From Candidatus Nanohaloarchaea archaeon (GTDB lineage Archaea; Nanohalarchaeota; Nanosalinia; Nanosalinales; Nanosalinaceae): a stretch of DNA of 36,590 nt. Shown here in pieces: positions 25,332-27,179 of this stretch. The stretch lies in assembly GCA_047617745.1 (NCBI GenBank), contig JBLGBN010000005.1, positions 1 through 36,590 on the forward strand. Reading direction: 5' to 3'. The position numbers and the translations under genes were made by a program. Under the pieces are notes generated by a model. The model saw only the letters and a list, made by a program, of their open reading frames with translations. It was not told the DNA's origin and searched no databases. Numbering within the stretch: position 1 is the stretch's first letter; each line of letters starts with the position of its first letter.

Positions 25332-25802
25332 ATGTCGGAAGAACATCCGTTTGTCGATGAGGAGGCCAGGAAAACCTCGACCATTGTAACCAAAAACTCT
25401 ATAGCTATTCCCAGGGATACTCAGAAGTTCAAGAAGAGCGAGCGGGCGTGGAACTGGGAGAAAATAGTTGATTTATTCTTCCCACATGAGCAGTCGCCTA
25501 AAAGGAACAAGTACGCCAAGATATTTCTACGGGAACTGAAAGACGAAGGTGAGATAGACTCTGAAAAACTGAACAGTTTCGATAAGTGGGGACATGAGAA
25601 GGGCAAGTCCAACCTGAAGAACAATATTCTTCCCAAGCTGAGGCGTCTAGGTGTTATAAAGTACGAATACCTGGAGTACAGAGGGAATAATGAGGGGGAG
25701 AAAGGCAGGAGAAAGCTGATTAAGCCGGCGAAGTCTTTCACTTCGACTCTGGATTCTATGGCGAATGGCTGGGCTGCTTACGAGTCAGCTGCCTCTGAAT
25801 AA
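25332..25802 (+). CDS. Lys/Arg-rich hypothetical protein, possible winged-helix nucleic-acid binder
   Basis: NLKNNILPKLRRLGVIKY..GRRKLIKP resembles a wHTH recognition helix and wing. Confidence 0.7.
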   Translation: MSEEHPFVDEEARKTSTIVTKNSIAIPRDTQKFKKSERAWNWEKIVDLFFPHEQSPKRNKYAKIFLRELKDEGEIDSEKLNSFDKWGHEKGKSNLKNNILPKLRRLGVIKYEYLEYRGNNEGEKGRRKLIKPAKSFTSTLDSMANGWAAYESAASE

Positions 25803-25812
25803 AAAAGAGAAA
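25801..25812 (-). terminator. Pyrimidine/T-rich terminator
   Basis: Minus strand TTTCTCTTTTTT directly after a three-helix domain. Confidence 0.6.
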
Positions 25813-25924
25813 GAGGAGGTTGACAGGACGCGAGTATTATTTGTTGTCCTGTTGCCGGAGGTGTGGAAAAGCACTAGGTCTGGCGGTAAAGATAATATAA
25901 AGTTCTCCGGCGTTTGCTCCTCTT

Positions 25925-26050
25925 CTAAAGTGCTGTTGCGGTTAAGACCGTTGCTTCCGGGCTGAGCTCTGTCTGTGGTCGGCTGTTTCTCTCTTCCTGT
26001 GCCTGAAGCTCGGCTTCGAAGTCTCGTGTGTTTGCGTTAATTGTTGACAC
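25925..26050 (-). CDS. Possible 41-aa acidic peptide inside the candidate RNA (MSTINANTRDFEAELQAQEERNSRPQTELSPEATVLTATAL)
   Basis: Read manually, GTG 26050 to TAG 25925; Glu-rich like the host proteome. Confidence 0.4.
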   Translation of the reverse strand: MSTINANTRDFEAELQAQEERNSRPQTELSPEATVLTATAL

Positions 26051-26408
26051 CTGGCTTGTTTGATCCTGGGTTGATCTCGTCTGAGTATATGTTCCGGAGG
26101 ATGACCATCACCTTGCAAGCGATAGCCATCCTCTTGGATTTCCCCTACGGCGTGGAGATGGCAGGTATGTGGAAATCCTGTCCAGTTGTGGTCTTGTGTT
26201 TTCGCGGTCGGCTCGAGACTGGCTCCAATTTGGGAGCCAAGGCGTCATTCCGCTTCACTCTGCCAGAATGCCAATATTATAGAACTTGGTAAACTTAGCC
26301 TTGGCCCTGTTGCAGCTATAGCTCACGGGCATCATATGCATACCGGTGAACCAGGATGTGTTTGCTAGGGCCATTTTTGACTTTCAACCGATAATTGGGG
26401 TCAGAGTC

Positions 26409-26424
26409 TTATAAATATTTCTAT
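26409..26424 (-). promoter_or_regulatory. BRE/TATA promoter for the candidate RNA
   Basis: Minus strand ATAGAAATATTTATAA immediately after the exonuclease stop codon. Confidence 0.65.
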
Positions 26425-27179
26425 TAACCCTGGATGTGTGGCCGGTAGAAACGGCTTTCCAGCCTCTGATGAACTATTTTAGCCAGTTCCTGGAGGTTAC
26501 GGGCATCGTAGCCGTTGTACTCAACCAGTTTGTCTAGAGCGTTCTCGTCGTTCTTGTTCTCGTACTTCTTCCATAGCCTTACAGCTTCTCTTCCGTCAAC
26601 ATCCTCTAGGTCTCTGTCGATCCCGATCTGTTTCTCTATCTTCTTCAAACCGCCTGAAAGCCCGATTCTTTTGCAGGGGTACATCAGATCGAGATGTGGT
26701 GTTTCGATTTCCATGCTGAAGTTGTGTTCCAGAAACGGTTGATCAAATTTTTTGCCGTTGAATGTTACCAGCATGCTTGAGTTGGAGATTTCTCTCTGGA
26801 TATTTTCTTTAGTCAGATTGTCGCCTCTAACCAGGGTTTTTGTCTCGCCGGCTCTGTGGAATGCGATAGTTGTTACTTTGTTTCTCTGTTTGTCCAGTCC
26901 GGTTGTCTCGATGTCAAAGAAACAGGCGTTCTCCTCAAAGTTTCTATATGCTCTCCAGAGGCTTTTGTTCGGCAGTTTATCGCCGAAAAAGTAGCTGTTA
27001 CCGACCTCTAGGTTCTTCCGGGCTTTCTCAAGAAACGACTCAACTGTTTCGCGTCTGGAATCTCCTATGACATCTGCCTGAGAAACATGGTCCCAGTGGG
27101 TGACATCGTTTTTCCATAACTTTTGCTCGGTTTTTTCCCCGATTCCTGGTGCGAGAATGAAACTGTTCTCCAACTTCAT
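26424..27179 (-). CDS. YprB-like RNase H-fold (DEDD) 3'-5' exonuclease
   Basis: N-terminal HhH-like PGIGEKTE; FFDIETTG, TFNGKKFD, GGLKKIE, YNGYD. Confidence 0.9.
   Translation of the reverse strand: MKLENSFILAPGIGEKTEQKLWKNDVTHWDHVSQADVIGDSRRETVESFLEKARKNLEVGNSYFFGDKLPNKSLWRAYRNFEENACFFDIETTGLDKQRNKVTTIAFHRAGETKTLVRGDNLTKENIQREISNSSMLVTFNGKKFDQPFLEHNFSMEIETPHLDLMYPCKRIGLSGGLKKIEKQIGIDRDLEDVDGREAVRLWKKYENKNDENALDKLVEYNGYDARNLQELAKIVHQRLESRFYRPHIQG

Follow-up and report, generated by a model that had tools for sequence, protein, structure and literature searches.

In the published leaders of archaeal l7ae genes, a kink-turn with a GAU bulge is followed by G.A/A.G pairs, and a G:C pair at -1b:-1n prevents folding induced by ions, so that L7Ae is required (Huang et al. 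2019, PMC6298567). Feedback by L7Ae through such a leader was shown by Daume et al. 2017 (PMC5539422). For transfer-messenger RNA (tmRNA), a 2025 survey (PMC11915505) gives no archaeon known to produce it and treats 73 tmRNA genes in archaeal metagenome bins as probable misbinning. Here, we describe a locus in a 36,590-nucleotide stretch of DNA from Candidatus Nanohaloarchaea archaeon (GenBank assembly GCA_047617745.1, contig JBLGBN010000005.1, positions 1 to 36,590 of the forward strand; 'the window' hereafter). A first-pass annotation had read this locus as tmRNA-like, and our comparison places it closest to the L7Ae-responsive leaders.

The element in question is a frame of 38 codons on the minus strand (26041-25925). 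It is very probably a conserved small-protein gene rather than a tmRNA tag, likely to be initiated in the ordinary way and lying in one unit behind a kink-turn leader. We infer from the placement of promoter matches that this unit consists of a promoter, an upstream open reading frame (uORF), a structured RNA of ∼280 nt and the 38-codon gene, carried on one transcript of ∼0.5 kb. Judged by the database searches described below, neither the RNA nor the 38-residue protein is a member of a described family, and searches of the literature on nanohaloarchaeal non-coding RNA, transcriptomes, small proteins and L7Ae yielded nothing on the locus among the papers listed. The ∼1 Mb genomes of this symbiotic family keep the unannotated ∼0.5 kb unit almost without exception. 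An archaeal tmRNA would be a major surprise, and the candidate is not one.

The 38-codon gene and its start

The gene and its ribosome-binding site were placed as follows.

25925..26041, minus strand: small-protein gene of 38 codons plus TAG, INANTRDFEAELQAQEERNSRPQTELSPEATVLTATAL, open in 46/46 loci; GUG at 26050 is the alternative start and gives 41 aa
26048..26052, minus strand: Shine-Dalgarno (SD) sequence AGGUG; an SD-like word is present in 45/46 loci

DNA matches to the 621-nt intergenic stretch were obtained in 21 of 41 related genomes, its own included, and a peptide profile (alignment A1) was searched in six frames through all 70 genomes of the class. With 14 further regions added, 46 distinct loci were analysed. 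Full-length matches to the profile, at E 8e-8 or better, occur in 46 genomes (the window's own, G000, 44 of the 49 others of family f1 and 1 of the 10 of family f3). Each has a single copy, and none of the 46 loci contains a stop; the weaker matches (E 2e-6 or worse) are partial and located elsewhere. Public records with the same gene bear the names Nanohaloarchaea, Candidatus Nanosalina and Candidatus Nanohalobium, among them Candidatus Nanosalina sp. VS9-1 and Nanohaloarchaea archaeon SG9, and in 2 of 10 exact look-ups gene callers had already called the 38-residue form a 'hypothetical protein'.

Open reading frames (ORFs) of at least 30 aa are common here, 49 of them overlapping the 5 kb around the frame. 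Given this density, the frame is taken to be more than chance because it is conserved, being open at full length in every locus, and because it carries a coding signature. Its mean entropies at codon positions 1, 2 and 3 are 0.91, 0.62 and 1.45, the third position varying most, and the median ratio of non-synonymous to synonymous change (dN/dS) over 666 usable sequence pairs is 0.25. The first 20 loci had given 0.82, 0.49 and 1.36, with a dN/dS of 0.24. Thus, the open frame, codon-periodic variation and purifying selection expected of protein-coding DNA are all present. The peptide is acidic, with an isoelectric point (pI) of 4.4 and a charge of -5, and the median pI of the long ORFs of the genome is 4.6.

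This signature also bears on whether the frame might be untranslated, being held open and conserved by constraints on the RNA. The adjacent uORF gives that idea some footing, as RNA helices there mimic conserved peptide motifs (see below). However, the codon periodicity and the low dN/dS are not what it predicts, and the consensus fold has no covarying helix in the frame, just two very short hairpins (3 and 2 bp) that lack real covariation. An SD and a start codon are present, and the acidic composition is that of the proteome. We therefore regard an untranslated frame as very improbable.

The beginning of the gene can be followed from codon to codon. The first-pass annotation had let the frame begin at GCA (26035), and variation between the loci does not respect that boundary. 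The codon directly before GCA encodes Asn or Asp throughout (GAC in 19 loci, AAC in 18, GAT in 6 and AAT in 3), so that synonymous change is visible there already. The codon before that is ATG in 29 loci, ATC in 8, ATT in 5 and ATA in 3, and one locus has ATT with an extra codon. Eight of the ATG loci have a stop 0-3 codons farther upstream, so that the N-terminus is fixed at this point. A word resembling an SD (GGTG, GAGGT or GGAT) was found at most 22 nt upstream in 45 of the 46 loci, starting at -10 in 14 of 16 ATT, ATC or ATA loci and at -10 to -17 in the ATG loci; in the window, AGGUG lies 6-11 nt upstream of the frame start. The 3' end of the 16S rRNA of this genome is GGAUCACCUCC, and 481 long ORFs are preceded by an excess of GGTG at -15 to -9, so that SD use and the anti-SD were confirmed in the genome itself.

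In the window, the start codon would be either AUU at 26041 or GUG at 26050. Two loci of one genus (L007 and L045) have the GTG inside the SD out of frame and contain no in-frame ATG, GTG or TTG, making ATT the likely start there.

Several points weigh against the reading as a small-protein gene behind a leader. At 17 of the 46 loci, the window included, the first codon is not AUG, and initiation would need AUU, AUC or AUA, or else the GUG inside the SD. By our tally this GUG is in frame in 15 of the 17 non-AUG loci, compared with roughly a third of the AUG loci. The SD is mostly paired in single-sequence folds (median unpaired probability 0.17) and has no conserved partner. The last codons of the uORF in the window (26273-26259) are complementary to the SD region (26054-26045, minus strand) at -16.6 kcal/mol, and about a third of the loci are alike. 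A family-wide coupling by an anti-SD in the 3' end of the uORF was rejected, with a mean of -8.5 against -7.85 kcal/mol in control windows and the duplex ranking first or second in only 6 of 43 loci. The peptide has no known family or fold: relatives were sought without success in Pfam, NCBIfam, the ESM Atlas and viral contigs, among PDB sequences (best E 0.053) and in a protein collection at near or longer lengths. Finally, the genomes are related to one another, so the shuffle controls used here overstate significance.

The tmRNA-like features

The tmRNA-like proposal was of an archaeal rescue RNA charged with alanine through a UCUCC/GGGGA helix, resuming at GCA 26035 and encoding a degradation tag. 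The letters on which it was built are as described. The minus strand has GTG at 26050, ATT at 26041, AAC at 26038, GCA at 26035 and the closing TAG at 25927-25925. The helix reads UCUCC (26158-26154), A (26153), a 7-nt spacer (26152-26146) and GGGGA (26145-26141).

26141..26158, minus strand: UCUCC-A...GGGGA 'mini acceptor helix', not conserved, 54.5% paired

Conservation of this helix was assessed in 22 homologous sequences that share the local architecture (alignment A3). Only 54.5% of cells are paired, and compensatory changes are absent. The pairing is equalled or exceeded in 458 of 500 shuffles, and sliding the arms by -1 or -3 improves it. The G3-U70 identity assigned to the helix was not borne out, since U-G stands at pair 3 in 5 of the 22 sequences; the 'discriminator' column is A in 18 and G in 4. 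The window contains the identity-set pattern TCCA-N3-15-GGG 38 times and shuffles contain it 44 ± 7 times, so that it stands at chance frequency. The GGGGA arm also overlaps, by 3 nt, the 3' strand of another helix, P4 (below).

The first-pass annotation had itself remarked on the absence of a recognisable T-loop or D-like loop and of SmpB in the window. ARAGORN reports neither a tmRNA nor a tRNA for the window or for any of 46 homologous loci. The tmRNA models gave no match at E up to 10 in 25700-26500, and their genome-wide matches are all below cut-off and on other contigs. Rfam 15 assigns no family at gathering score, whether to the window or to 18 homologous loci. The search for SmpB (PF01668) was negative in the window's genome (88.6% complete) and in all 41 genomes searched, of which 21 reach a completeness of at least 90%; ten bacterial controls gave matches.

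Each of four features that define tmRNA was looked for and found absent, which places the locus outside that family. In favour of a tmRNA-like RNA, a structured RNA does precede a short frame ending in ...TATAL, and 17 of 46 loci have no AUG at the first codon. Against it stand the unconserved helix with its pattern at chance frequency and its G-U pair in only 5 of 22 sequences, the uniformly negative ARAGORN, Rfam and SmpB searches, and the manner in which the frame begins. An SD-like word precedes GCA in 45 of 46 loci, and an AUG stands two codons before it in 29, with a stop just before that AUG in 8. The frame is thus conserved from a normal start codon with an SD upstream, the outcome that the annotation had itself named as refuting its proposal, and we give a tmRNA-like function practically no credence. 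The fallback offered in the same annotation, a structured mRNA for a small peptide, is the reading that conservation, the SD and covarying helices support.

The structured RNA and its probable transcription unit

The features upstream of the small gene are given in the order in which they would be transcribed.

26409..26415, minus strand: TATA-like promoter box TTTATAA, from the genome's own promoter matrix
26255..26374, minus strand: uORF of 39 codons, MALANTSW...GILAE, stop TGA at 26257-26255, open in 43/43 loci
26367..26373, minus strand: 5' strand of helix P1, UGGCCCU, overlapping the uORF AUG and pairing with 26308-26302
26322..26349, minus strand: P2 hairpin within the uORF, UCACCGG ... 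CCGUGAG, 90.0% paired
26298..26308, minus strand: S2, AGGGCCAAGGC, the 3' strand of P1, complementary also to S3, GCCUUGGC (26243-26236)
26204..26253, minus strand: kink-turn element enclosing P3, with invariant GAUGA and GACC
26219..26240, minus strand: P3 hairpin, UUGGCUCC - CAAAUU - GGAGCCAG, 93.8% paired
26136..26178, minus strand: P4 helix, supported by a permutation test, GGAUUUCC (26178-26171) with GGAAAUCC (26143-26136), enclosing the conserved loop CCUGCCAUCUCC...
26097..26133, minus strand: P5 hairpin, capped by the conserved GCUUGCAAGGUG, 97.3% paired

The 5' domain of the RNA was aligned with a covariance model (R2, 43 sequences). Overall, 93.1% of cells are paired and compensatory changes occur at 19 of 31 pairs, a level that none of 500 shuffles reached. 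P1, formed by AUG-GCCUUGG with CCAAGGCCA, is 90.4% paired across the 43 sequences and has 7 bp in the window's own register. Changes on both sides were seen at 6 of 8 pairs of P2, and all 8 pairs of P3 show compensatory changes. The 3' domain (model R1) adds P4 and P5. The sequence of P4 varies freely between loci and its complementarity is kept: the mean pairing energy is -10.1 kcal/mol when both flanks belong to one locus and -6.0 kcal/mol when they belong to different loci (none of 2000 permutations being as low), at least 5 bp form in 43 of 45 loci, and 75% of cells are paired on the model alignment. For P5, the pairing was measured over 45 sequences, with compensatory changes at 11 of 14 pairs.

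About half of the family (L011, L012, L015, L017-L020 and others) has the P4 loop CCUGCCAUCUCUACACCGU replaced by an inner hairpin with loop CCUCUGUGGAACA, and some loci have a further hairpin, so that the 3' domain comes in two architectures. At the apex of P5 (26121-26109, minus strand) the invariant loop GCUUGCAAGGUG contains CAAGGUG, as do the real SD context and the l7ae leader. This loop might be a decoy or a standby site for the 3' end of 16S rRNA.

In all 43 loci the uORF runs uninterrupted from its ATG, at the 5' strand of P1, to a stop that is 1 nt short of the kink-turn stem, and is 35-43 codons long. Of the two alternative frames, one is open in a single locus and the other in none, and shuffles lead one to expect 6.3. 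Its coding signature is weak, with a dN/dS of 0.57, nearly flat entropies of 0.79, 0.86 and 0.93, and a pI of 9.5. What appear to be conserved motifs of the peptide are strands of RNA helices; MAL... corresponds to one strand of P1 and ...KAKA... to the other.

The kink-turn follows the pattern GCGG-(G/A)AU-GA ... GA-CCGC. In the window, a C stem of GCGG/CCGC is followed by the bulge AAU, tandem G.A pairs (GA at 26246-26245 and GA at 26209-26208) and an NC stem of GC/GC. These are the elements by which a kink-turn is defined in PMC6298567, namely a 3-nt bulge, tandem G.A pairs and flanking Watson-Crick stems. GAUGA and GACC do not vary among the 43 sequences. The four pairs of the C stem are 100% paired, two of them with compensatory changes, and so is the 2-bp NC stem, where U-A replaces C-G in 10 of 43 loci. 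The -1b:-1n pair is G:C in all 43. This is the only copy of the motif in the genome, which also encodes L7Ae (contig C32), and L7Ae is predicted to clamp this kink-turn.

An AUG inside the kink-turn (GGAAUGACG) opens a frame of 46 codons (26108-26248, minus strand), which is not kept in the relatives; its start, MTPW or MKPW, seems conserved because the nucleotides are. The l7ae gene itself (C32:2117-2392, minus strand, with ∼70 nt upstream; L075) has a leader, CCUUGAUGAUCC...GUGAAAGG, beside two AAGGUG words. This leader has a GAU bulge and GA next to the ribosome-binding site, like the published autoregulatory leaders.

Known RNAs were also searched for with Rfam 15 at E up to 10 in 25700-26500, where the only matches were toga_FSE, which is the P5 hairpin (E 0.74), and sR15. 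The latter is the sole match to a box C/D small RNA (sRNA) in Rfam and, at E = 4.8 and 15.8 bits against a cut-off of 40, was rejected. Signal recognition particle RNA was found on contig C7 instead (121.6 bits). RNase P RNA was discarded as an identity for the locus, its only candidate, itself below cut-off, lying elsewhere in the genome (G000, C1:15898-16309, plus strand; L021). At 39.4 bits, that candidate falls short of the gathering score of 84, and it spans 412 nt for a model of 288 positions, and the low score and extra length point to a divergent, expanded RNase P RNA.

A promoter matrix was built from upstream regions of the window's own genome. Upstream of the uORF, 33 of 43 loci have a match above the 95th percentile of random windows, and in 31 of these 33 the match starts 34-48 nt before the uORF ATG. 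From this fixed distance the 5' end of the RNA is predicted to lie a few nucleotides before the uORF AUG. An internal promoter before the small gene was rejected, as the matrix passes there in 1 of 46 loci. Promoter matches thus stand before the uORF and hardly ever before the small gene, which argues for a single transcription unit.

Linkage was examined with the 5' domain model, which has one copy in 43 of 49 f1 genomes and in the f3 genome that the peptide profile had also matched (G039), always beside the small gene. The three disagreements between this model and the peptide search are contig ends. The small gene always lies 190-330 nt downstream of the conserved structured RNA.

The promoter and linkage data also speak to the possibility of two separate genes, in which a stable non-coding RNA (∼290 nt) that ends after P5 and forms a ribonucleoprotein with L7Ae would be followed by an independent short mRNA. 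Such an arrangement would account for the CCGGAAC and U-rich or AU-rich stretch that follows P5 in many loci, for the poorly conserved linker of variable length up to the SD, and for the slight protein-level constraint on the uORF. However, the promoter counts (1/46 before the small gene, 33/43 before the uORF) run against it, the RNA and the gene are never apart save at contig ends, and the window has no U run after P5. We consider two separate genes unlikely and retain the single unit.

Downstream of the small gene, a run of at least four T within 100 nt of the stop was found in only 18 of 46 loci, and on this basis a terminator was rejected. The plus strand carries a convergent ORF of 156 aa (25332-25802) that has no family in Pfam or NCBIfam. 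Most related loci have its conserved C-terminus in the corresponding position, so synteny is kept. The f3 locus (C114:602-1064; loci L005 and L034) is complete and of f1 type, with 67% DNA identity. It is the one found among the ten f3 genomes, and it may be a misplaced bin, a transfer or an ancestral retention; its contig is only ∼2.5 kb.

A proposed switch and comparison with known systems

The word GCCUUGG that follows the G.A pairs (S3) is nearly the same as the word at the start of the uORF (S1, AUGGCCUUGG), and both are complementary to S2 (CCAAGGCCAAGGC). Because S2 could pair with either, the RNA could switch between two states. In the first, the kink-turn and P3 would form and S1:S2 would bury the uORF AUG; in the second, S2:S3 would pair and leave that AUG free. 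Translation of the uORF, and perhaps the fate of the mRNA through it, would then depend on L7Ae. A ribosome stopping at the end of the uORF, with the C stem 1 nt away, would need to open the kink-turn as well.

S2:S3 keeps 7 or 8 of its 8 pairs in 42 of 43 loci, and compensatory variants were seen in L005, L007, L045, L020, L072 and L073. Its excess over the permutation control is small (7.53 against 7.27 pairs), which counts against the scheme, and for this reason the switch helix is put forward as a proposal. The full form of the idea is a family-wide, L7Ae-gated switch through the triplicated GCCUUGG/CCAAGGC word that would set the output of the acidic protein, with AUU, AUC or AUA starts in about a third of the lineages. 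We rate it as doubtful. The locus provides a compact natural setting in which to examine L7Ae-dependent RNA switching beyond the l7ae and nop5 leaders. It also offers a test of the role of a leader ORF that ends at a kink-turn, and of archaeal initiation at AUU, AUC and AUA with a well-placed SD.

Of the systems with which the locus may be compared, bacterial tmRNA (SsrA), including its two-piece permuted forms, shares with it a structured RNA with a short frame and small hydrophobic end residues. Unlike SsrA/SmpB, the locus has no tRNA-like domain, conserved acceptor helix, G3-U70 pair or SmpB; it has its own SD and start codon, and it is archaeal. The resemblance to archaeal box C/D sRNAs lies in a C-like box (GGAUGA/GAAUGA), a D-like box (CCGA), the kink-turn and a short terminal stem. 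Unlike those RNAs, it has no C'/D' boxes, and the D-like box is preceded by the covarying 3' strand of P3, with no conserved guide.

Bacterial dual-function RNAs and leader-peptide switches, such as SgrS/SgrT, RNAIII/hld and attenuators, form a third group. They resemble the locus in combining structured RNA with short frames and, as proposed here, mutually exclusive helices over a start codon. They differ in that no trans target, ligand or terminator was identified at this locus, and in that the lineage here is archaeal.

The archaeal l7ae and nop5-fibrillarin leaders, as described in PMC5539422 and PMC6298567, share most with it: a stem-loop in mRNA, a 3-nt bulge of GAU type, tandem G.A/A.G pairs, the G:C pair at -1b:-1n (the type reported to be unfolded without protein) and closeness to translation signals. 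Unlike in those leaders, the kink-turn here sits in a multi-helix RNA of ∼280 nt, with a uORF stop 1 nt ahead of it and the SD ∼155 nt beyond it. The downstream gene encodes a 38-residue protein that is not a known L7Ae partner, and binding of L7Ae is predicted from sequence. By analogy, the locus would work most like the L7Ae-responsive kink-turn leaders, differing from them in its size, in the uORF that ends at the kink-turn and in the gene that would be regulated.

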